From: a virus
Taxonomy: Duplodnaviria > Heunggongvirae > Uroviricota > Caudoviricetes
Length of the DNA: 39,895 bases
Virus record (IMG/VR): IMGVR_UViG_2519899564_000019
Strand: one strand, 5' to 3'
Shown here piece after piece: positions 983-11,250 of the stretch. The notes below the pieces were generated by a model. That model saw nothing but the letters and a program-made list of their open reading frames with translations, was not told the origin of the DNA and did not search any database. Numbering within the stretch: position 1 is the first letter of the stretch; each line of letters begins with the position of its first letter. The position numbers were made by a program, and so were the translations under genes.

Positions 983-3047
983 ATTGATTTCATTCAGTGA
1001 CCTACCTAGTTCTTTGGCAGGTCTGCACAAAAAAGCAAAGAGGGAAGCGTGGAAAACGCGGCTAAAACCAGGGGTAAAAGGGAAAGTTTTAGAGTGTGAA
1101 ATAGGAGCTTTGCCTTTAACTGTTCAGCAGGCAGTACGCGAACGCTATGCCCTGCAACTGATGACGCAAAAAGCCGATGAATCACCGGCTCCGGTAGTGA
1201 CAAAGGCCAGGCGCTCACCTGCCGTGGTTGATGCGGTGGAGGCATATCGCGGATCACCACAACTGATGGTCGAACGCCTTAATGCCCTGACTGAAAACCA
1301 GCGCCAGGTGGCTGATGCACGAATCGCGATCGTCAGCGAAGTTCTGAAAGTCGCGCAACAACCTGGTTTCAGCTGTGCGAAGGCTATCCGGTTTATCGTT
1401 GACAACCTGGCACGTTCGCAGCTGGACGAGCGCATTGTGGCAATGGTTGAGACGGCGAACGCCAAAAAGGGAAACAGCCGCGCGTTAAGTGAAATCACGC
1501 TGAAACGCTGGATTGCGGCCTTTAACAAGGCGCAGAACGCCGCTGAACGCCTGCTTTTACTGGCACCGGGTAAGCGCCAGGAAATAAAAGCCGAAGATAT
1601 TAACTGGCTGCCCGAATTTCTGGCGCAGTATCGCCAGTCAAACGGCCGACCAATGACCGAGGCTTACGAGGATTTTGTCGCTGAATGGCAGCACCGGCAC
1701 GCTGATGAGCCTTATATGCTCGATATCATGCCGTCTTATGACACCATTCGCCGCGCAATGAAGAAACTGCCGGAAGTGGTGAAACAAAAAGGCCGGGTGA
1801 CCGGCAGTGAATACCGCCAGCTTGAGGGATTCACGCGCCGCGACTGGTCAAAAATGCCGGTGAATTATGTCTGGATTGGTGACGGTCACGGCATGAAGCT
1901 GAAATGCGCACACCCGGTTCACGGTCGGCCATTTGCACCGGAAGTGACCTTTGTTATCGACGGTGGCACGCGCTTTGTGGTGGGCTGGAGCCTTGACCTG
2001 GCTGAAAATGTTTTCGCCGTAGCCGGTGCCATACAGCACGGCATTCGCCATCACGGCAAACCGTTTCTGTATTACTCGGATAACGGCTCCGGGGAAACCG
2101 CCGACATCCTGGATAAGGAGGTTGTGGGGATACTGCCGCGACTGGGGATTAATCACCCGACCGGGATTGCCGGTAATCCGCAGGGACGAGGCATTATCGA
2201 ACGGCTTAACCGCACATTACCGATGCGCATAGCCCGTAAATACCGCACCTATTTCGGGAAAGGTGCAGATCGCGAGACGTTACGCAAAACCAACCGCGAT
2301 TTACGCTCGGCATTTACTGCCCTGCAACAGGGCAAACGGCTGAACGCCCGGCAGCAGTCAGCGATGCGTGATTTACCGTCCTGGTCTGAACTGATTGATG
2401 CCATTCGTGATGGTGTTGAGTGGTACAACAACCGGCCGCACGATGAATTACCGGTGAAGCCGAACGGCAAGCATTACAGCCCGGCGGAGTTCAGAAAAAA
2501 ACGCCTGGCGGAAGAGGACACGGAAATTGAATGGCTGTCCGATGTGGAATTGCGGGACATGTTCCGGCCGATGGTGGAACGCCCTGTAAGACGCTGTGAA
2601 ATACGCTGGCTGAATAATATTTACTACGCGCCCGAGCTGCGTGATGAGCATGGCCGCAAGGTGCTTATCAGCTATGACATTCATGATGCCGAACGAATTA
2701 CCGTACGTCGCCTGGATGGCAGCGTGATTTGCGAGGCGGTATGGGACGGTAATAAACGCGAAGCCTTCCCGGTTAGCGCGGAATACTACAAACAGCAGCA
2801 ACGCCTTAAAGGCATGCGTAAACGCGCAGAGGAAAAAATCCGTGATGCCGAGGATGAGGTTGTCAACGTGCTGGAGCACAAGCCGCAGGAGCCCTGGCTG
2901 GAAAACATCTATCGCCCGGTAGGTAATACGGTGGCCGTTCAGCAACCTGCCGTTGATGATGAGCCTGATGAAGAATACGAGCGCAATTTCCAGCGGGGAT
3001 TGCAGTTGCTCGAAGCGAAATTAAAAGAAAATGACCCGCTGGCCTGA
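963..3047 (+). CDS. A: Mu-type DDE transposase A
   Basis: 702-aa frame; N-terminal DNA-binding domain shared with the repressor; central DDE-like core (VWIGDGHG, YSDNGSGE, NPQGRGIIER). Start chosen at ATG 963 (GGAGG at 953-957); the track ORF starts at 939 and ATG 975 is an alternative. Confidence 0.9.
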   Translation: MWVAMTELISFSDLPSSLAGLHKKAKREAWKTRLKPGVKGKVLECEIGALPLTVQQAVRERYALQLMTQKADESPAPVVTKARRSPAVVDAVEAYRGSPQLMVERLNALTENQRQVADARIAIVSEVLKVAQQPGFSCAKAIRFIVDNLARSQLDERIVAMVETANAKKGNSRALSEITLKRWIAAFNKAQNAAERLLLLAPGKRQEIKAEDINWLPEFLAQYRQSNGRPMTEAYEDFVAEWQHRHADEPYMLDIMPSYDTIRRAMKKLPEVVKQKGRVTGSEYRQLEGFTRRDWSKMPVNYVWIGDGHGMKLKCAHPVHGRPFAPEVTFVIDGGTRFVVGWSLDLAENVFAVAGAIQHGIRHHGKPFLYYSDNGSGETADILDKEVVGILPRLGINHPTGIAGNPQGRGIIERLNRTLPMRIARKYRTYFGKGADRETLRKTNRDLRSAFTALQQGKRLNARQQSAMRDLPSWSELIDAIRDGVEWYNNRPHDELPVKPNGKHYSPAEFRKKRLAEEDTEIEWLSDVELRDMFRPMVERPVRRCEIRWLNNIYYAPELRDEHGRKVLISYDIHDAERITVRRLDGSVICEAVWDGNKREAFPVSAEYYKQQQRLKGMRKRAEEKIRDAEDEVVNVLEHKPQEPWLENIYRPVGNTVAVQQPAVDDEPDEEYERNFQRGLQLLEAKLKENDPLA

Positions 3048-3117
3048 AATAAAAAATAACCCGAGCGGCGACTCAGGTTATTTGATTAAACAAGGTATCA
3101 AATGAGAGGTTAATAAT

Positions 3118-4050
3118 ATGACTGATATTAACGATGTAATCAAGACCATTGATGAACTTATTGATGGCGGCGTACTGACGCAGTATGCCATCGCCAGAGA
3201 GGCGGGAATTTCCGACGGCACATTATCGGCTTTCCGCAAGGGGAAATATAAAGGCGATAACGCCGCTGTGGCTGCTTCCCTGCGTTCCTGGTATGAGAAC
3301 TGGAATAAACAAAGCGCACTGCCGGAACCGCCGCAGTTTGTGGAAACGCAGACAGTTCAGGAGCTGCGCGCACTGTTTCAGGCGGTTCGCCTGATGGGCT
3401 GTATTAACGTCATTGTGGGCGTGCCGGGGGTAGGTAAAACGGCCACCGCCCGTAATTACTGCCAGGAGCAACCAAACACCTGGATGATCACCCTGTCACC
3501 CGCGCACTCCAGCGTCACGGAGTGTCTGCTGGAGCTGGCCGATGCGCTGGGGATTGATTACACCCGCGCGAACAAAGGGGCATTATCCCGCGCCATCCGC
3601 CGTCGCCTGATGGGAACGCGTGGACTGGTGATTGTGGATGAGGCGGATCATCTTGGTATTGACGGTCTGGAGCAACTCCGGGCAATTCAGGACGCCACGG
3701 GGATCGGGATGGTGCTTATTGGTAACCCGCGCGGATTGTTTAAAGGTGGACGCCGCGCCTTTGATGATTTATCGCGCCTGTTCAGCCGTCTTGCCCGTAC
3801 AAAACAACTTCGCAAGGCCAAAAAGGCGGATGTGCTGGCCATTGCCAGGGCATGGGGTATCAGTGGTGAGGCCGAGCTGGCCGTCATGCAGGCTATCGCT
3901 GAAAAGCCGGGAGCGTTACGCGTTCTGACACATACGCTTAACCAGGCGTGGCTCACCGCCAGCGGTGAAGGTGCGGCGCTGACAGAAAAACATATTAATG
4001 CGGCCTTTAAAGAGGTTTATACCAACCCTGAATTACTCTCACAGGTGTGA
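3118..4050 (+). CDS. B: MuB-like transposition ATPase / target DNA activator
   Basis: 310 aa directly after A; Walker A GVPGVGKT and Walker B-like VIVDEADHL. Confidence 0.85.
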   Translation: MTDINDVIKTIDELIDGGVLTQYAIAREAGISDGTLSAFRKGKYKGDNAAVAASLRSWYENWNKQSALPEPPQFVETQTVQELRALFQAVRLMGCINVIVGVPGVGKTATARNYCQEQPNTWMITLSPAHSSVTECLLELADALGIDYTRANKGALSRAIRRRLMGTRGLVIVDEADHLGIDGLEQLRAIQDATGIGMVLIGNPRGLFKGGRRAFDDLSRLFSRLARTKQLRKAKKADVLAIARAWGISGEAELAVMQAIAEKPGALRVLTHTLNQAWLTASGEGAALTEKHINAAFKEVYTNPELLSQV

Positions 4051-4052
4051 TT

Positions 4053-4274
4053 ATGGCGGTATTTTATATTCCTGATATTTACGGACGCTTTTACCTGGTT
4101 AATTTCGATAACGTGAAGGTGATTTCACTGGCCGAAAATAAAGAATGTGGCGATTTACTTTTTGAATTTAATGACCGCACACGAATGGTGATATCTGCCG
4201 GACTTGATCGCGAAGGTGCGACAGAAGTTTACAGCGGAATATGCCGTTCTGTTGGTGCGAAACAAGTCAGCTAA
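4053..4274 (+). CDS. hypothetical early protein (74 aa) at the position occupied by kil in Mu
   Basis: ORF starting right after B stop; no recognisable motif; position only. Confidence 0.35.
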   Translation: MAVFYIPDIYGRFYLVNFDNVKVISLAENKECGDLLFEFNDRTRMVISAGLDREGATEVYSGICRSVGAKQVS

Positions 4275-4286
4275 ATGAGGTGTTAT

Positions 4287-4541
4287 ATGAATATGCAATC
4301 CTGCGGTAACAAAATGAATTTATTCGACTCCCTGAACAGCGCGCGCCGTCTGACCGAACTTGCCGGTGCGGTACTGGAACGCAGTAAGCGCTACCCACAA
4401 CGTTTTGCACTGAAAACCACGCCGCCGGTAGGCAACGTGCAGGGAACCGGTGAAATTGAAATCACCATACAGACCAACGGCCTGCGCCGCCGTGTGAAGG
4501 CCACCCGCATCAGCGGCTGCACGGTTTACTGGGAGGTGTGA
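4287..4541 (+). CDS. hypothetical early protein
   Basis: Track ORF 4275-4541; GAGG at 4278-4281 favours ATG 4287 or 4293 as start. No motif recognised. Confidence 0.4.
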   Translation: MNMQSCGNKMNLFDSLNSARRLTELAGAVLERSKRYPQRFALKTTPPVGNVQGTGEIEITIQTNGLRRRVKATRISGCTVYWEV

Positions 4542-4542
4542 G

Positions 4543-4824
4543 GTGAAAAAAAATCTCATTGCATGGGCGTGGTCGAGTGGTCTTATTGAGTTTGGTTACG
4601 TCCTGCCGGAAGGTGCATTGCCGATAGTTGCCGGAAAGCCTGCCACGGTACGGCATGTGATTGAGGTTATGGCGCGTCATGGACGTGATGAACAGGAGCA
4701 GTTACTGGTTCCGGGGATACCGGAAGCGGTGACGGAGGAAGAAGCCTTTAATGCCATGATTCGGTTCTGCCGTGAGGTCAGACGCCGGGTCAGTTATCCA
4801 AACAGAACGAGGACCAGAGGGTGA
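4543..4824 (+). CDS. hypothetical early protein (93 aa)
   Basis: Tightly packed ORF with GTG start overlapping the upstream stop; no motif recognised. Confidence 0.4.
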   Translation: MKKNLIAWAWSSGLIEFGYVLPEGALPIVAGKPATVRHVIEVMARHGRDEQEQLLVPGIPEAVTEEEAFNAMIRFCREVRRRVSYPNRTRTRG

Positions 4825-5093
4825 GTAAAGTCGTACGCATTATTTTCGAATACAAGGAGCACGTTATCCATAAAAACGCTGATGGAACAGTGCGCATGGG
4901 GGTAAGTCTGGACATACGTTCAACCGGGATAAAGCAGAAAGGTGATGGACCCGCCATGATTTTTGGGGTGGTTATGCTCGCGGAAAGCAGAGACTTTGCT
5001 GAACTTGTGGCAATGAAAGCCAGTGCGCTCATGAAAGATATGAGCATGCGTTCCGGGGTTATTAAAGGTAATGAATTTAATCAGCAGGGGTAA
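4821..5093 (+). CDS. hypothetical early protein, paralogue 1 (MSKVVRIIFEYKEH...)
   Basis: 90-aa ORF whose first ~15 residues closely match the next gene. Confidence 0.45.
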   Translation: MSKVVRIIFEYKEHVIHKNADGTVRMGVSLDIRSTGIKQKGDGPAMIFGVVMLAESRDFAELVAMKASALMKDMSMRSGVIKGNEFNQQG

Positions 5094-5097
5094 TTCC

Positions 5098-5391
5098 ATG
5101 AGCAAAGTACGCGTTATTTTTGAATTTAAGCATGTTTCGCATGACGAAAAACCGGCAGGCAATGACTGTGTTGAAGTGCATGAAAAGATTGGTGTGGATG
5201 TAAAAACAGAACGTGATACGAATAACAGGCCGACGTCACTCTGTGACGTTTATGCAAGTATTCTCCAGTATCACAGCCCTGAAATTATTCAGTTTCTCTC
5301 AGCGGAATTTCAGGCATCTGTACAGGCTTTTGGGGCGGATGCCATCATTAAACGCCACCGCGTGCATAAAGCATCAGGCACACTGCAATAA
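5098..5391 (+). CDS. hypothetical early protein, paralogue 2 (MSKVRVIFEFKHV...)
   Basis: Internal ATG at 5098 of track ORF 5071-5391 gives an N-terminus parallel to the upstream gene. Confidence 0.45.
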   Translation: MSKVRVIFEFKHVSHDEKPAGNDCVEVHEKIGVDVKTERDTNNRPTSLCDVYASILQYHSPEIIQFLSAEFQASVQAFGADAIIKRHRVHKASGTLQ

Positions 5392-5402
5392 GGAAAAACA
5401 AA

Positions 5403-5933
5403 ATGGCAAAACGCGTTACAAAATTAAAGGCCGCAGCAGAGGCGGCACCGCAGACCCGTGAAGAGGTCAGCAGCGATATCCGCACCCTGGGCGATATTCA
5501 GCGAGAGGCGCTGCGCCTGGAAACAGCGATGAATGATGAAGTGGCAGAAATCACCGCCCGTTATACGCCGCAGATTGAAAACCTTAAAAAAGAAATCAAA
5601 GTGCTTTTTAAGGGGATTCAGGACTGGTGCAAAACCAACCGTGATGAGCTGACGAACGGCGGCAAAACCAAAACTGCCAATCTGACCACCGGAACGGTGT
5701 CATGGCGACTGGGGAATCCATCATGCAGCGTCAGTCGTGATGTGGAAGGTGTGATTGAAATGCTGCGCCGTATGGGCCTTGAGCGTTTTATCCGCACGAA
5801 AGAGGAAGTGAACAAGGAAGCGGTCCTGGCGGAGCCGGATGCGGTGAAAGGGATTGCCGGTATTAAGGTGAATAAAGGCGCTGAAAGTTTTTATGTCGAG
5901 CCTTTTGAACAGGACGCCGGACTGAATAAATAA
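5403..5933 (+). CDS. gam: Gam-like host-nuclease inhibitor (DNA end-binding)
   Basis: 176 aa; matches Mu Gam as recalled (TNRDELTNGGKTKTANLTTGTVSWR, RFIRTKEEVNKEA, PFEQ near the C-terminus); expected position in the early region. Confidence 0.8.
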   Translation: MAKRVTKLKAAAEAAPQTREEVSSDIRTLGDIQREALRLETAMNDEVAEITARYTPQIENLKKEIKVLFKGIQDWCKTNRDELTNGGKTKTANLTTGTVSWRLGNPSCSVSRDVEGVIEMLRRMGLERFIRTKEEVNKEAVLAEPDAVKGIAGIKVNKGAESFYVEPFEQDAGLNK

Positions 5934-6030
5934 CACCGCATTAATCAATTAAATATCACTTCGTTTTAATTATGGCGCTCGCGTCAGGGGACTGCCTGCG
6001 CCTGTAAACTGAAAATAAGGAACAGGATAT

Positions 6031-7110
6031 ATGGCATATTTTTATTTCAAATTAGACCGTGTGCAGACAAATAAATATTTCACCAAATATCAACAGACTG
6101 TTTTACCGCTACGCAACAGTATTCTTCGGGCATTACTGAAAAATACAGGCGCTGCCGGATTGCGCTTAAAGCCGTTTGCCATGGACGTAATCAGTGAGTT
6201 TTATTTTTCTGGTGCTCTGCCTGCGGGCTGGCGTAAGCGCGATGATGTGGCTTTTATCGGGGACGGACCGTGCTTTATTGCCAGACCTGATGAGTCATGC
6301 CCTGAAGGTCCGGCGATTGCCGCAATGATTGAAACCGCTGAACGTGAGTTAAGAAAGCGTCCTGATTTCCTTGTCTGGCTCTGTGAAAAGCTGGGGGTAA
6401 TGAGAATCCCCTCCATGTTTAACACGGACTCCTGGTGGACCCCGTCGCTCTCCCGTGATGCCCTGTGCGTGGTGTTTAAAGTAGGCGCTTATGGCAGGGA
6501 AATAAAAGGGTGTATTCCTGAAGAATGCCAGGAAATTAAACATTCTGAATATGTGGCGCTGACGGAGGAATACTTCATGATTGATGCAAAAGTGCTTGAA
6601 GGGGTTAAAAACTGGCTGAGTATTTACGGGCGTCTGACCTGCGGCATTCTGGCTGAAAAAATGAATATGCCGCCATCCTCGATGGTTTATTTTCTGCGTG
6701 ATGCGGTCGATGCCGGGGTGCTGACGGAATGTAACGGTTTTTATGATATTCCGCGTCCCCGCCCGGTGCAGCCGGTTCGTCGCAAATGCAGCCAGGAAGG
6801 TGCGGCTGATGATGTTCAGTGGTGCAGCTTCAGAAAATCCCTGCCGTGGATTGAGGGGCATGATATTCCGTCGATGGCGTGGGAATTTGCTCAGGGCGTA
6901 CTGACCTGCGAAACCGTTTATGTGGTGGCTGAAGTTGATGAGCAGGCCATGAAAGAAGGCGTGCCCCAGTTTGTGATGGCGTATATCGACATTCGCCTGG
7001 GTGTCATTATCTGCGGTTTAAGCGGCTGGAATATCACCGAACATGTTCTGCGTTACCTGATTGTTGACCGGACGGCTGCACCTGCCGGGATATCTGCGGA
7101 GGTGGCGTAA
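6031..7110 (+). CDS. hypothetical protein (359 aa), early-region cargo
   Basis: Long ORF with upstream AAGGAACAGG; no motif I can assign; first gene of a translationally coupled series. Confidence 0.5.
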   Translation: MAYFYFKLDRVQTNKYFTKYQQTVLPLRNSILRALLKNTGAAGLRLKPFAMDVISEFYFSGALPAGWRKRDDVAFIGDGPCFIARPDESCPEGPAIAAMIETAERELRKRPDFLVWLCEKLGVMRIPSMFNTDSWWTPSLSRDALCVVFKVGAYGREIKGCIPEECQEIKHSEYVALTEEYFMIDAKVLEGVKNWLSIYGRLTCGILAEKMNMPPSSMVYFLRDAVDAGVLTECNGFYDIPRPRPVQPVRRKCSQEGAADDVQWCSFRKSLPWIEGHDIPSMAWEFAQGVLTCETVYVVAEVDEQAMKEGVPQFVMAYIDIRLGVIICGLSGWNITEHVLRYLIVDRTAAPAGISAEVA

Positions 7111-7625
7111 TGTTCTTTAAAACATCAAACCCTTCCGCGCTGGCCGCGTGGCAAAAATATCAGCAGGACTGCCAGAAAGTTAAGGATGAGGCAAAACGCC
7201 TTGAGGCCGTGCTGAATGTTGCGTGCCGGTCGGTATTTGTATCCGGTATCAGTGGCTTTTGTTTTAAAGGGCTGCGCTTTATGGATGACAAATATCCTTT
7301 TCATCGCGACTTATGGCGAAAACCGACTGCGTCGAATGGCTGGAGCTGCACACCGCGCACATCACGTATTCCCAAAGCCCTGCGCGTTGCCTCTGACGAA
7401 CTTAACAGTCTGTGGCGTGAATATTCGCCCGTCACGTATGCCAGAACCGATGCACTGTTGTTCTGGCTGGGTATTGACTTCTCAGCAATATTGCATGGTC
7501 CCGTGAAGTGGTTCTGCGTTGACGATGTTATTTACCTTCAGTGCGAAGATGATTCCGCAAAACGGAAAATGACCGAAATTCTGTCTGATGAGTTTTATGC
7601 TGCCGAAAAGCGAGTCGGGGGGTGA
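7110..7625 (+). CDS. hypothetical protein (171 aa), early-region cargo
   Basis: ATG overlaps the upstream stop (TAATG); no motif recognised. Confidence 0.5.
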   Translation: MFFKTSNPSALAAWQKYQQDCQKVKDEAKRLEAVLNVACRSVFVSGISGFCFKGLRFMDDKYPFHRDLWRKPTASNGWSCTPRTSRIPKALRVASDELNSLWREYSPVTYARTDALLFWLGIDFSAILHGPVKWFCVDDVIYLQCEDDSAKRKMTEILSDEFYAAEKRVGG

Positions 7626-7628
7626 TGC

Positions 7629-8180
7629 ATGATGAAATTACAACCCATGGGGAGAAAAGGCCGTGCACCCGCTCATGTTCGCGCATGGACACCTGAAGAA
7701 GATGCGCTGCTGATTGCGCTTTATCCATCCACCCCGGTTAAGGATATTGCTGTCAGGATAAAAAGAAGTTTCTGGGGTGTACATAACCGGATTGTTTTAT
7801 TACGCGGTACTTACCCGGAGTTGCTCAAATGCAAACGCCTCAGATTTAAACCTGATGAAGATAAATTTATCCGAAAAAATGCCAGGACGATGACCGGTAA
7901 GCAAATAGGAGAATATCTGGGGCGAGACCGGGATTCTGTCCACAATCGGGCGCGATATATTGGCGTAAGCATGAAAAAATACGGAGAATTGCTGCCTTTT
8001 ACCCGCATACCTGACGATGATGTTCATCTTATTCGTGAATTACGGGATGCTGAATCACCACGACGTCTTACCTTCCGGGAAATAGGCGAGAAATTTGAAT
8101 TATCCGAGAGTACGGTGAATTTTATTTATCACCATCGCCGGACTGCCGAAGATGTTGTATTACGGGAGTTAATGCCATGA
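7629..8180 (+). CDS. hypothetical protein with three degenerate helix-turn-helix-like repeats (183 aa)
   Basis: Three internal repeats of about 45-50 aa each beginning with an acidic motif (WTPEEDALL / FKPDEDKFI / IPDDDVHLI), two of which end in HNR; resembles Myb/SANT-type tandem DNA-binding repeats by eye only. Confidence 0.45.
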   Translation: MMKLQPMGRKGRAPAHVRAWTPEEDALLIALYPSTPVKDIAVRIKRSFWGVHNRIVLLRGTYPELLKCKRLRFKPDEDKFIRKNARTMTGKQIGEYLGRDRDSVHNRARYIGVSMKKYGELLPFTRIPDDDVHLIRELRDAESPRRLTFREIGEKFELSESTVNFIYHHRRTAEDVVLRELMP

Positions 8181-8488
8181 TAACGACATTATTTGTTGAA
8201 TCAGACGAGCCTCTGGTATGTGTCGCCGGAATGTCGGTTTGTGGCGGAACGCTGACCGGTGTTTATTTCGGGGATTTGCGCGGTTATCCCTGGCATTCAC
8301 TGGATGACGCATTTCCGCCTGATATGGAGGCTGTCGTGCTGATTGTTCAGTATGGTGACCAACAGGAACTGCGCATCGGCCATATGGGGTATGAAGGCTT
8401 TTTTATTGATGAAGAAACCGGAGCCTGCCTTGAAGATGAGGACGGACAGGTGACGCACTGGTGCCATATTTCAGCTTTACCGGAATGA
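8177..8488 (+). CDS. hypothetical, strongly acidic small protein (103 aa)
   Basis: ATGA start/stop overlap with upstream gene; about 19 Asp+Glu versus 3 Arg/Lys. Confidence 0.45.
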   Translation: MITTLFVESDEPLVCVAGMSVCGGTLTGVYFGDLRGYPWHSLDDAFPPDMEAVVLIVQYGDQQELRIGHMGYEGFFIDEETGACLEDEDGQVTHWCHISALPE

Positions 8489-8853
8489 CGGGAGGTGAAT
8501 GCGTGAGAAGTTATATTGATAATGAAAAACTGAAGACAATCAGCGACTGTCTTAGCTTGCTGGCAAAAATAAAAGAAACCATTGAAGAGATTAAATTTCA
8601 GCTTGAATACGAACCCTGTGGCGATGATACATGGCGTAACTCTGCCAGAAAAGCACTAGCTGTCTTTCAGAAACAACGCCGGACTGTTGAATACCGCCTT
8701 GCTGTATTGCGCCAGGAGGAAAAGGAAAGAAATATAAGACGTCATGAACTCGTTAATGATTTTCTTGTTCGTGAATTAAAGGAGCGTGTGCCGGAGTCGG
8801 TATTTTTTGAGTGTGAGGCTGTTGCCCGTAGCAAAGCACTGGAAACTGATTAA
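8485..8853 (+). CDS. hypothetical early protein
   Basis: Track ORF 8461-8853; ATG 8485 overlaps the upstream TGA (ATGA), or GTG 8503 follows GGAGG at 8491-8495. Charged, helical-looking sequence. Confidence 0.4.
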   Translation: MTGGECVRSYIDNEKLKTISDCLSLLAKIKETIEEIKFQLEYEPCGDDTWRNSARKALAVFQKQRRTVEYRLAVLRQEEKERNIRRHELVNDFLVRELKERVPESVFFECEAVARSKALETD

Positions 8854-8865
8854 ACAGGCAGGTGA

Positions 8866-9201
8866 ATGATGAGTATTGAATTAAGATCGTCTTATGAATA
8901 TCGTAAAATTCTCATCGCCGGAGGCATGAAACCGGAAGATGCAGAAAAAATCGTTTCTTTTATGGATAAAGAATGTGACAAACGGGATATGCCAGAAATT
9001 ATTATGGATGACATGATTCTGCATTCAGCCGTAGCGTTAAGCCCGTTATGGATTGTGCATTCTCTTGCTGAAATTGCCAAAGGCACCGATAAACAGGCAG
9101 CTGTTGCTGCCCTTCAGACGCTTAATGAAATGCGTATATCTCCACGCCCGACATTAATACATATGATTCTGTCCAGCATGGAGGATAAAGCAAATGAATA
9201 G
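8866..9201 (+). CDS. hypothetical early protein (111 aa)
   Basis: ORF in the coupled series; no motif recognised. Confidence 0.4.
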   Translation: MMSIELRSSYEYRKILIAGGMKPEDAEKIVSFMDKECDKRDMPEIIMDDMILHSAVALSPLWIVHSLAEIAKGTDKQAAVAALQTLNEMRISPRPTLIHMILSSMEDKANE

Positions 9202-9391
9202 TCTACCCGCTGGATGGGCGCGGCCACTAATGGCCAGGAAGCATCATTTTTTTAAAACAGGCGAAAATATCAGTATATGTGGACGGTGGTTATATCTGGC
9301 TCATAATCGCGAGCCGGATACATTTGAAAGCCCTGATGACTGTGCCGAATGCCGCAGAAGAGTGAATAAGGAGAAAGATAATGGACAATAG
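9194..9391 (+). CDS. hypothetical small protein (65 aa)
   Basis: Overlaps upstream stop; contains C-x20-C-x2-C; too few cysteines to call a zinc ribbon. Confidence 0.3.
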   Translation: MNSLPAGWARPLMARKHHFFKTGENISICGRWLYLAHNREPDTFESPDDCAECRRRVNKEKDNGQ

Positions 9392-9677
9392 TTCTCTGTT
9401 GTTCTGGTGCTTATATATCACATCCTTTTTCGGCGCATTTGTTATTACCCGGTGGTTATGTCGAAAAATCATCTGCTTTTTTGATAAAAGACATCCGGTT
9501 GAACGGGCGGCTGATGCGCTCATTCAGCAGGCCATTGTGTTATATAGCGGTGAATTTTTCTGCCGGATAACAACCAGAGATGGCTGGCACATAATGATTA
9601 TTCCACCAACACACCATGCCCGGTGGGATGAGGCAGAAAAGGCTTTCCATGTCCGTAAAAAGGTAAATACGGTATGA
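9381..9677 (+). CDS. hypothetical small membrane protein (98 aa)
   Basis: N-terminal hydrophobic segment LLFWCLYITSFFGAFVITRWL. Confidence 0.4.
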   Translation: MDNSSLLFWCLYITSFFGAFVITRWLCRKIICFFDKRHPVERAADALIQQAIVLYSGEFFCRITTRDGWHIMIIPPTHHARWDEAEKAFHVRKKVNTV

Positions 9678-10183
9678 GAGGAAAACTGATATCCGCCATT
9701 CATGTGGCAAAGCGCGAGCTTGCCCTGGATGATGAGACTTATACATCCGCGCTGCTGGCAGCCACCGGCAAAACCAGCTGCCGGGATATGTCACCGGATG
9801 AGTTATCCCGCGTGCTGGATGTTTTCAAAAAACGCGGTTTTAAAGTGCGTCAGAACCCGGTTAACCGGGCCTTAAAACCGGGTACGGTGACCGCCAGAAT
9901 TCGCGCCATCTGGAAGGTGATGCACCGGCAGGGCTTTATCACCGATGGTGCGGAAACCGCCCTTAACCGCTGGGTGAAATCGCAGACGGCCGCGCAGAAC
10001 GGCGGCGAAGGTGTGGCAAACTGGCAGTGGCTGGAGCAACACCCCGCCCTGGCCTCAGATGTGCTGGAGCGTCTCAAGCGATGGCACCGCCGCAAAATGC
10101 TGGCCGCGATGGGAATGCCCGAACGCACGCTGATGGGGTATGACGCCGTTTGCAGGCAGTATGAAAAATCACTTCCCCGTTAA
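9674..10183 (+). CDS. gemA: GemA-like protein (Mu gp16 family), last gene of the early operon
   Basis: 169 aa; N-terminus LISAIHVAKRELALDDETY and position just before the Mor/C-like gene fit the Mu gp16 family as recalled. Confidence 0.65.
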   Translation: MRGKLISAIHVAKRELALDDETYTSALLAATGKTSCRDMSPDELSRVLDVFKKRGFKVRQNPVNRALKPGTVTARIRAIWKVMHRQGFITDGAETALNRWVKSQTAAQNGGEGVANWQWLEQHPALASDVLERLKRWHRRKMLAAMGMPERTLMGYDAVCRQYEKSLPR

Positions 10184-10188
10184 CTCCA

Positions 10189-10218
10189 AATCCCGCCACA
10201 ACGCGGGATTTTTATTTT
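10189..10218 (+). terminator. Rho-independent terminator after the early operon
   Basis: Perfect 8-bp stem AATCCCGC / GCGGGATT with a 6-nt loop, followed by TTTATTTT, 6 bp after the gemA-like stop. Confidence 0.7.
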
Positions 10219-10252
10219 AAACTTACCGGGAACGCGAGAACCGGAGGCTGAT

Positions 10253-10678
10253 ATGGCAGAAACTCAGATGAGCATGTTTGGTGGTGACAGTGAGCAACTG
10301 CACGCCCTTATCGACCGCCTTGATGACATCCCTGATGATGTTCTCAAAAAGAACTGGCCGCGGACCCTGTCAGAACTGGTTGAAGTCACCGGCGCAGAAC
10401 TTCAGCGTCAGGGGATTGAGCCGGTACTGGCCGGTAAACTGGCACGCAAGGTGGCTGCGGCTCAGGCAGCCTATATGGGCGGACGGGGTTATTACCTGCC
10501 GGTCGGGGAATCTCTCTTTGCCGAGCTGCGAAACAATGAGATATTTTCGCGCTGGGACCGGGGCGAGAAAATTGAATCCCTTCGCCGCCATTACCGGATG
10601 TCAGAAACCCAGATTTATAACGTCATACGCGAACAGCGCCGTCTGCATCTGGCAAGAACGCAACCGCCACTTTTCTGA
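10253..10678 (+). CDS. Mor/C-family transcriptional activator (middle/late gene activator)
   Basis: 141 aa; C-terminal HTH-like region (RRHYRMSETQIYNVIREQRR) typical of the Mor/C family; only one such homologue in the window, so Mor versus C cannot be decided. Confidence 0.7.
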   Translation: MAETQMSMFGGDSEQLHALIDRLDDIPDDVLKKNWPRTLSELVEVTGAELQRQGIEPVLAGKLARKVAAAQAAYMGGRGYYLPVGESLFAELRNNEIFSRWDRGEKIESLRRHYRMSETQIYNVIREQRRLHLARTQPPLF

Positions 10679-10749
10679 TATTCCGCAAAGCCTGCCGCCT
10701 CTCCTTCACCGTTACGCTGACTCAGAGAACATCATGAGACAGCGTAACA

Positions 10750-11250
10750 ATGCCAAAACTCCCCGCACCACTGCGTAAAAAGCTGATTGCCCTTGTTCTG
10801 GCCGGTGCCGGGACGTTCACGATTGCCACGCATTACACCGGTTACTGGGAAGGGAAAGAAAACTCCACGTATATCGATCCCACCGGTACACCCACCATCT
10901 GTTACGGCCATACCGGCCCGGATGTGAAACCGGGTATGACCCTGACAGATGAAGAATGCCTGGAACTACTGGAAAAGGACATGAAATGGGCCTTTGCGGC
11001 CATTGATCGGCGTGTTCAGGTGCCGCTTACCCGTGGTCAGACGGTGGCGCTGGCTTCGTGGATCTTCTGGGCCGGTGAAACGAACTTTCGCAACTCCACG
11101 CTTCTGCGCCTGATCAATGCCGGGCAGATGCCCGCGTCCTGTAAGCAGTATATCCGCTGGATTTATTCAAAGGGGGTGAAACTCCCCGGCCTTGAGGCCC
11201 GCCGTTCGGCGGATGAATGGTTATGTCGCTACGACTTGCCGAAAGTCTGA
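10750..11250 (+). CDS. lys: SAR-type endolysin (lysozyme)
   Basis: 166 aa; N-terminal weakly hydrophobic Gly/Ala-rich segment (LIALVLAGAGTFTIA) followed by a lysozyme-like domain; Mu lys position. Confidence 0.8.
   Translation: MPKLPAPLRKKLIALVLAGAGTFTIATHYTGYWEGKENSTYIDPTGTPTICYGHTGPDVKPGMTLTDEECLELLEKDMKWAFAAIDRRVQVPLTRGQTVALASWIFWAGETNFRNSTLLRLINAGQMPASCKQYIRWIYSKGVKLPGLEARRSADEWLCRYDLPKV

Follow-up and report, generated by a model that had tools for sequence, protein, structure and literature searches.

The semi-essential early region of bacteriophage Mu includes, downstream of gam, the genes gp11 and gp12 (Mup11/Mup12, formerly E10-E13). Phage SfMu has a further gene in this interval, ORF11, which lies between gam and gp11 and whose product is among the proteins without a homologue in Mu or D108, according to the SfMu authors (PMC4406740). 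A search of the literature turned up neither functional work on Mu gp11, Mu gp12, DUF5420 or the hairpin described below nor any gene-level functional assignment within this part of the early region. The arm function (amplified replication of Mu) presumably maps somewhere between gam and gem. Here we analyze the matching interval of another Mu-like prophage, a block of abutting early genes at positions 6031-8488 (+ strand) of the virus record IMGVR_UViG_2519899564_000019 (Caudoviricetes), whose whole stretch of 39,895 nucleotides we refer to as the window.

The window represents a Mu-like transposable prophage, in which the repressor, ner, MuA, MuB, a set of small early genes, Gam, the block, GemA, a Mor/C-type activator and lysozyme follow one another in this order. 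Our favored interpretation, to which we assign a probability of roughly 60%, is that the block consists of the usual non-essential early accessory genes of Mu-type phages, carried here by a prophage that is common in pathogenic E. coli. Its protein families (Mu gp11, Mu gp12, relatives of DUF5420, PHROG 323 and PHROG 6925) and the prophage type, with its hundreds of genomes, are already known; what is new is minor, and comprises a private gene fusion, a probable relationship between gp12 and DUF5420, and a quantified account of the mosaicism of the region.

Five genes around a Mu gp11-gp12 pair

A preliminary description of the window had placed four consecutive genes between gam and gemA, and the four + strand open reading frames (ORFs) of 359, 171, 183 and 103 aa are indeed present, at 6031-7110, 7110-7625, 7629-8180 and 8177-8488. 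Their location in the early operon, co-oriented and abutting, also holds, but the count does not: the 359-aa ORF is two genes, so the block has five. Residues 1-180 match PHROG 2260, and residues 183-358 match a different one, PHROG 1949. The first half, which we call A1 (6031-6573, + strand), is a protein of 180 aa in all other copies, and here it lacks its stop codon: base 6573 is C in the window and A in related copies, so that the codon at 6571-6573 reads TAC (Tyr) where the relatives, including the 99.9%-identical E. coli O157 prophage that we compared, have TAA. RefSeq annotates that prophage with separate genes of 180 and 177 aa, the second starting at the ATG that corresponds to window position 6577 and preceded by its own Shine-Dalgarno sequence, GGAGGA. 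Because the frames of A1 and gp11 coincide, loss of the stop yields an in-frame fusion with a two-residue Tyr-Phe linker; the ribosome-binding site and ATG of gp11 are intact, so gp11 is probably still made on its own.

How widespread is the fused form? In a collection of 15 billion proteins it occurs on one contig (EJF03660.1, E. coli O26:H11 str. CVM9952), whereas the separate A1 and gp11 proteins are each found on at least 1000 contigs. The 61 nt around position 6573 have no exact match among the 220 complete-genome records that contain the site, and the fusion was seen in no other locus among the approximately 85 related loci examined. The fusion is either a mutation private to this strain or an error in base calling.

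The second half of the ORF (6577-7110, + strand; A2) encodes a protein of 177 aa that is 68% identical to Mu gp11 over its full length and matches the Pfam family Gp11_C (PF25754) with 137.5 bits against a cut-off of 27, at residues 272-349 of the fused ORF. In an alignment of 32 sequences, about 60 residues at the N-terminus of gp11 form a conserved domain, which a variable linker connects to the C-terminal domain, and in an AF2 model built from this alignment the N-terminus is winged-helix-like. The next gene (B; 7110-7625, + strand) encodes a 171-aa protein that is 53% identical to Mu gp12 over 168 aa (E 2e-64) and belongs to PHROG 2314, and a Salmonella protein 50% identical to it has a precomputed match to PF26885, Phage_Mu_Gp12, a family outside the profile set that we scanned and in which Mu gp12 itself matches no family. 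An exhaustive HMMER search returned a gp12 family with 61 representatives at 50% clustering, all of them stand-alone proteins of about 165-190 aa. Members also occur outside Mu-like phages: the non-Mu temperate phage locus L147 (also L148-L151) has, at 5989-6519, a gp12-family gene with about 30% identity to the window protein. The repressor upstream of this gene is of the cI type (HTH_3 + Peptidase_S24), a CII/replication operon lies opposite, and there is no gp11 nearby.

The correspondence to Mu extends beyond the proteins. In both phages the pair lies downstream of gam, which is followed by a spacer of about 97-98 nt, the two genes are similar in size (177 and 171 aa in the window), the Gp11_C domain is present, and the stop codon of gp11 overlaps the start codon of gp12 as TAATG, an overlap retained in 61 of 62 loci, Mu included. 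Unlike Mu, the window has an extra DUF5420-like gene 5' of gp11, and where Mu has gp13-gp15 it carries other small genes (C, D, E, F, G and H). The conserved core pair of the block is gp11 and gp12, and they probably work together. The block proteins had been taken as unrecognisable and as impossible to assign to a Mu early function. Their families can in fact be placed: gp11 and gp12 are clear Mu orthologs, C resembles Mu gp9 (E8), and A1 is a relative of DUF5420 that SfMu and Yersinia Mu-like phages have as well. What survives of the earlier view is that these homologs, including those in Mu, have names and no functional characterization. Nor are the sizes of the genes unusual, since Mu gp11 and gp12 are themselves 176 aa each.

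A1 is 40% identical to SfMu ORF11, which occupies the same place. Its relationship to DUF5420 is clear by direct comparison with a genuine member that passes the cut-off of PF17457 (BLASTP 31% identity over 190 aa, E 5e-21; hhalign 100%), yet A1 falls below the threshold of the family: the window protein has no match to the PF17457 profile even at E up to 10 (gathering score 26 bits), and in Salmonella an A1 homolog scores 15 bits where the neighboring true member scores 43.9. In these Salmonella Mu-like prophages (L085-L088, 6001-7136) an A1-like gene and then a true DUF5420 gene form tandem paralogs 5' of gp11; in two of them (L085 and L086) DUF3164 replaces gam and a Myb/HTH protein replaces gp12. 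By identity, A1 alleles fall into classes of 93-100%, about 24% and 28-40%. The predicted fold is confident and has no solved relative, and its structural neighbors are uncharacterised or unnamed phage proteins only (BFVD, TM up to 0.73).

By eye, A1 and gp12 share features from end to end, including a C-terminal E-I-x-x-S/D-E-F/Y motif. BLASTP between them was not significant, and hhalign with profiles from local sequences only gave a probability of 2%; once the gp12 profile had been enlarged with the 61 representatives from the HMMER search, hhalign aligned A1 to it over 149 collinear columns with a probability of 83.5% (E 8e-6). A1 and gp12 are therefore probable, though not proven, distant paralogs, going by these profile alignments. 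If the paralogy holds, the order of the block would read gp12-like protein, gp11, gp12, helix-turn-helix (HTH) protein and small protein.

The HTH protein is the product of gene C (7629-8180, + strand), 183 aa long, a relative of Mu gp9 with three tandem Myb/HTH-like modules and a predicted DNA-binding protein. C matches PHROG 323, 'transcriptional regulator, D5-like', with E 2e-58; its repeats 2-3 are 31% identical to Mu gp9 (E 1e-9), homology also links repeats 1 and 2 (hhalign 90.5%), and repeat 3 matches HTH_11, AsnC and sigma70_r4, all below threshold. A Salmonella ortholog, 43% identical, exceeds the cut-off for Myb_DNA-binding (27.4 against 24.4) and also that for Myb_DNA-bind_6. In tblastn, C also hits phage genes with the annotation 'DNA binding protein', as well as regions that carry the label of an HNH endonuclease or a DNA methylase gene. 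Compared with Mu gp9, C has one additional N-terminal repeat and a different location, since gp9 lies upstream of gam in Mu and C lies downstream of gp12; no gp9 homolog was found upstream of gam in the window. Gene D (8177-8488, + strand) encodes a small accessory protein of 103 aa that matches PHROG 6925 (E 5e-52). Its C-terminal half is DUF551-like (PF04448; residues 39-96 against positions 2-61 of a 68-position profile), at 13 bits and E 0.2, below the 22-bit cut-off, and a D-like protein from Salmonella has no DUF551 match. We also considered D as the counterpart of Mu gp14 or of SfMu gp14/gp15, with which it shows no similarity.

We regard the block genes as real because all of them have diverged homologs and evolve under purifying selection, with median dN/dS values of 0.11-0.38 between the window copy and diverged alleles; constraint is weakest on A1 (0.38), and the value for D is 0.11. 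All block ORFs have a purine-rich Shine-Dalgarno motif 6-9 nt 5' of the start. Sequence searches of the PDB with all five proteins gave no significant match to a solved structure, and NCBIfam profiles gave no useful match. On the opposite strand, a 170-aa ORF (6349-6861, - strand) overlaps A1 and gp11; it carries no annotation in the RefSeq copies and is probably spurious.

Exchangeable modules within a long early operon

Do the genes of the block travel together? The preliminary description treated them as one unit and suggested comparing the locus across Mu-like prophages. We assembled 80 viral contigs and one species-representative genome with a gp11 relative (Citrobacter braakii, the single locus that a gp11 profile search of species-representative genome contigs returned), together with Mu, SfMu and four Salmonella loci, and clustered the ORFs between gam and gemA; the counts that follow come from the 65 loci with the whole interval, all of them anchored on gp11. 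Genes of the gp12 family are present in 45 of the 65, A1 in 34, C in 30 (as two allele classes) and D in 19, and the complete set of five is present in 14. The order of the genes takes 34 different forms. D follows C, always with an ATGA overlap (27/27), or comes straight after gp12 with C missing, again through ATGA (5/5), and in L085 C follows gp11 with gp12 missing. These loci are phylogenetically non-independent, many coming from E. coli strains, so the counts describe variety and not frequencies. The genes do not form a fixed unit; they are scattered and vary independently in their presence, and A1, C and D look like exchangeable modules.

The tight packing that had made the block look like a co-translated cassette is itself genuine. 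The TAATG at 7108-7112 and the ATGA at 8177-8180 are as reported; the ATGA at 8485 is also present, but in RefSeq the next gene has a different start, the in-frame GTG at 8503, with GGGAGG as its Shine-Dalgarno sequence. As a mark of these particular genes, however, the abutment does not serve, being general across the early operon: from MuB (3118) to gemA (10183) all junctions measure -11 to +14 nt, except for the 97 nt after gam, and the block genes are tightly joined whichever module follows, at +3 for A1-gp11, +3 for gp12-C, -4 for C-D, -4 for gp12-D and -8 for D-g13.

Over 3000-10800, shuffled sequence gives at least as many promoter- and terminator-like matches as the real one, and the interval 5900-8500 has no promoter-like site on the + strand. 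The best terminator-like site on this strand is a hairpin with a 9-bp stem and a T-run directly after gemA (10188-10211), within a gap of 69 nt, and judged by its sequence this is where the early operon with the block likely ends. Beyond it, at 10253-10678 (+ strand), lies a single Mor-family activator whose similarity to Mu C (39%) exceeds that to Mu Mor (27%). The window prophage seems to have no separate Mor/C pair, and its early operon seems to end after gemA.

The 5' boundary of the block is marked by a second hairpin, of 29 nt (5974-6002, + strand), in the 97-nt spacer between gam and A1 (5934-6030). This hairpin, GGCGCTCGCGTCAGGGGACTGCCTGCGCC, has the layout GGCGC-TC-GCGTC-AGGG-GACTGC-CT-GCGCC, and is preceded by an AT-rich run and followed by the next Shine-Dalgarno sequence and ATG. 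It occurs once in the window and is kept at this module boundary in every Mu-like locus that we checked, among them Mu (~6368), SfMu, Salmonella prophages in which gam has given way to DUF3164, and distant Mu-like contigs with protein identities of only 30-45% (MuB 31-35%). The modules that flank it vary, and its distance to the start codon that follows is always about 20-30 nt. Pairing is maintained in 96% of cells, with one compensatory change from C-G to U-A and several G-U wobbles. The hairpin matches no Rfam family, the spacer between gam and A1 as a whole is not unusually stable (z = -0.49), and repeat and tandem-structure checks of the region found nothing. It could serve in RNA processing or stabilization, bind a protein, or act at the module boundary as a recombination linker.

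Proposed role and competing explanations

If the block does represent ordinary Mu-type accessory genes, gene order and the Mu paradigm suggest that it would be transcribed early after induction, on a long transcript that would start at the early promoter and extend to the hairpin after gemA, and its abutting stop and start codons would lead to translational coupling or re-initiation, as throughout the operon. On this proposal gp11 and C may bind nucleic acid, gp11 and gp12 may act jointly as the core pair, and the five proteins could be dispensable helpers that modulate DNA transactions, such as the efficiency of replication or transposition, or that modulate host or phage gene expression.

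Several observations weigh against this proposal. For none of the five genes is there an experiment or a characterized homolog that indicates function. The winged-helix call for gp11 is tentative, because the structure model behind it is poor (pLDDT 53.7), and the HTH matches of the window's own C protein all lie below the Pfam cut-offs, the best being HTH_11 at 21.5 against 25. Roughly 20 of the 65 loci have gp11 and no gp12, and conversely gp12-family genes without gp11 occur in distant Mu-like contigs (MuB about 33% identical) and in a lambdoid-type contig, so that a strict gp11-gp12 partnership is not universal.

Among the competing explanations, the one that fares best, though we think it unlikely, is that the block is an anti-defense or host-takeover cassette, with A1, C, D or the gp12/DUF5420 superfamily as the most plausible agents, perhaps in a co-translated complex. 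The place in the early operon would suit such a role, right after gam, annotated as a host-nuclease inhibitor, as would the module-like, patchy presence across related prophages and the occurrence of gp12-family genes in the early/immunity region of a non-Mu temperate phage. A1 in particular combines the weakest constraint in the block with very divergent alleles, at 24-40% identity, and with a confident fold whose only neighbors are uncharacterised phage proteins. However, we found no similarity to characterized anti-defense proteins, no search with anti-defense profiles having been made, and PADLOC gave only two weak matches, of protein C to HEase (E 0.021) and of the neighboring gene F (8866-9198) to PDC-S72 (E 0.035). 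Further, the mosaicism leaves no unit of four genes that travel together, the coupling is generic to the operon, and two members resemble DNA-binding proteins and not typical small inhibitors.

A more specific and more speculative version, which we hold to be somewhat less probable still, would make the gp12/DUF5420 superfamily, with its two copies flanking gp11, a stand-alone early effector of unsolved fold for host takeover or counter-defense in Mu-like and lambdoid-type temperate phages. The hairpin at 5974-6002 could then act in cis, as RNA or as DNA, to control how the accessory half of the Mu early operon is expressed or exchanged. Considerably more doubtful is the notion that gp11 and gp12 form a regulator-effector or toxin-antitoxin-like pair, in which the upstream winged-helix protein controls or neutralizes the downstream one. 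Such a pair would account for the near-invariant TAATG, and it fits the resemblance of the gp11 N-terminus to a winged helix and the similar sizes of two proteins that are both under purifying selection; but the genes have no promoter of their own and are embedded in an operon of about 9 kb, each occurs without the other, and no toxin or antitoxin profile match was found. We give scarcely any credence to the 359-aa fusion as a selected bifunctional protein, a 'Rosetta-stone' sign of interaction between A1 and gp11: the join is in frame through a linker of only two residues, and the spacing from A1 to gp11 is +3 nt in 41 of 43 loci, but a single draft-genome contig stands against the thousand or more that carry each separate gene, none of the 220 matching complete-genome records has the fusion, a base-call error is possible, and gp11 retains both its Shine-Dalgarno sequence and its ATG.

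Returning to the proposal of ordinary accessory genes, the comparison makes Mu genes 11 and 12, as a conserved core whose overlap is nearly always kept, reasonable genetic targets for the old, unmapped early functions of Mu, and it places DUF5420-type genes as probable distant paralogs of gp12. Should one of the block proteins be an immune inhibitor or a replication enhancer, its practical reach would come from the spread of the prophage in Shiga-toxin-producing E. coli. As it stands, the significance of the block is very small, its sole unusual feature, the 359-aa ORF, being a private point change.

The source prophage

Over the 5.3 kb around the block, prophages of Shiga-toxin-producing E. 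coli, O157:H7 among them, are 99.9% identical to the window at the DNA level, and this stretch is present in 233 of 5426 complete E. coli genomes. By this near-exact match and an identical gene order, the window prophage is assigned to the Sp18 type of Mu-like prophage; Sp18 of O157:H7 Sakai is a Mu-like prophage that is apparently intact (PMC2669165). Over the 5.3 kb the window differs from these relatives at 3 positions, the change from stop to Tyr at 6573 and two further substitutions. One protein cluster takes its name, 'Mu prophage protein', from an O157:H7 proteome (UniRef, ECO57 suffix). A Mu-like prophage of the window's type also sits inside two GenBank records of Stx-converting phages, LC727881.1 and LC727895.1 (~93 kb each), in which the feature is labeled 'region of the inserted Bacteriophage Mu-like phage'; this arrangement fits Mu-type transposition into resident prophages.

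Base composition varies along the window: the G+C content of the early accessory region (4001-10000) is 0.445-0.497, against mostly 0.55-0.63 in the late region (10001-31000), and it is low again, at 0.44-0.51, toward the right end (33-39 kb). Upstream of the block, at 4275-4541 (+ strand), a small early protein resembles Mu Kil in its C-terminal part (33% identity over 39 aa, E 2e-4), and this similarity suggests that it is possibly the Kil equivalent of the window prophage.

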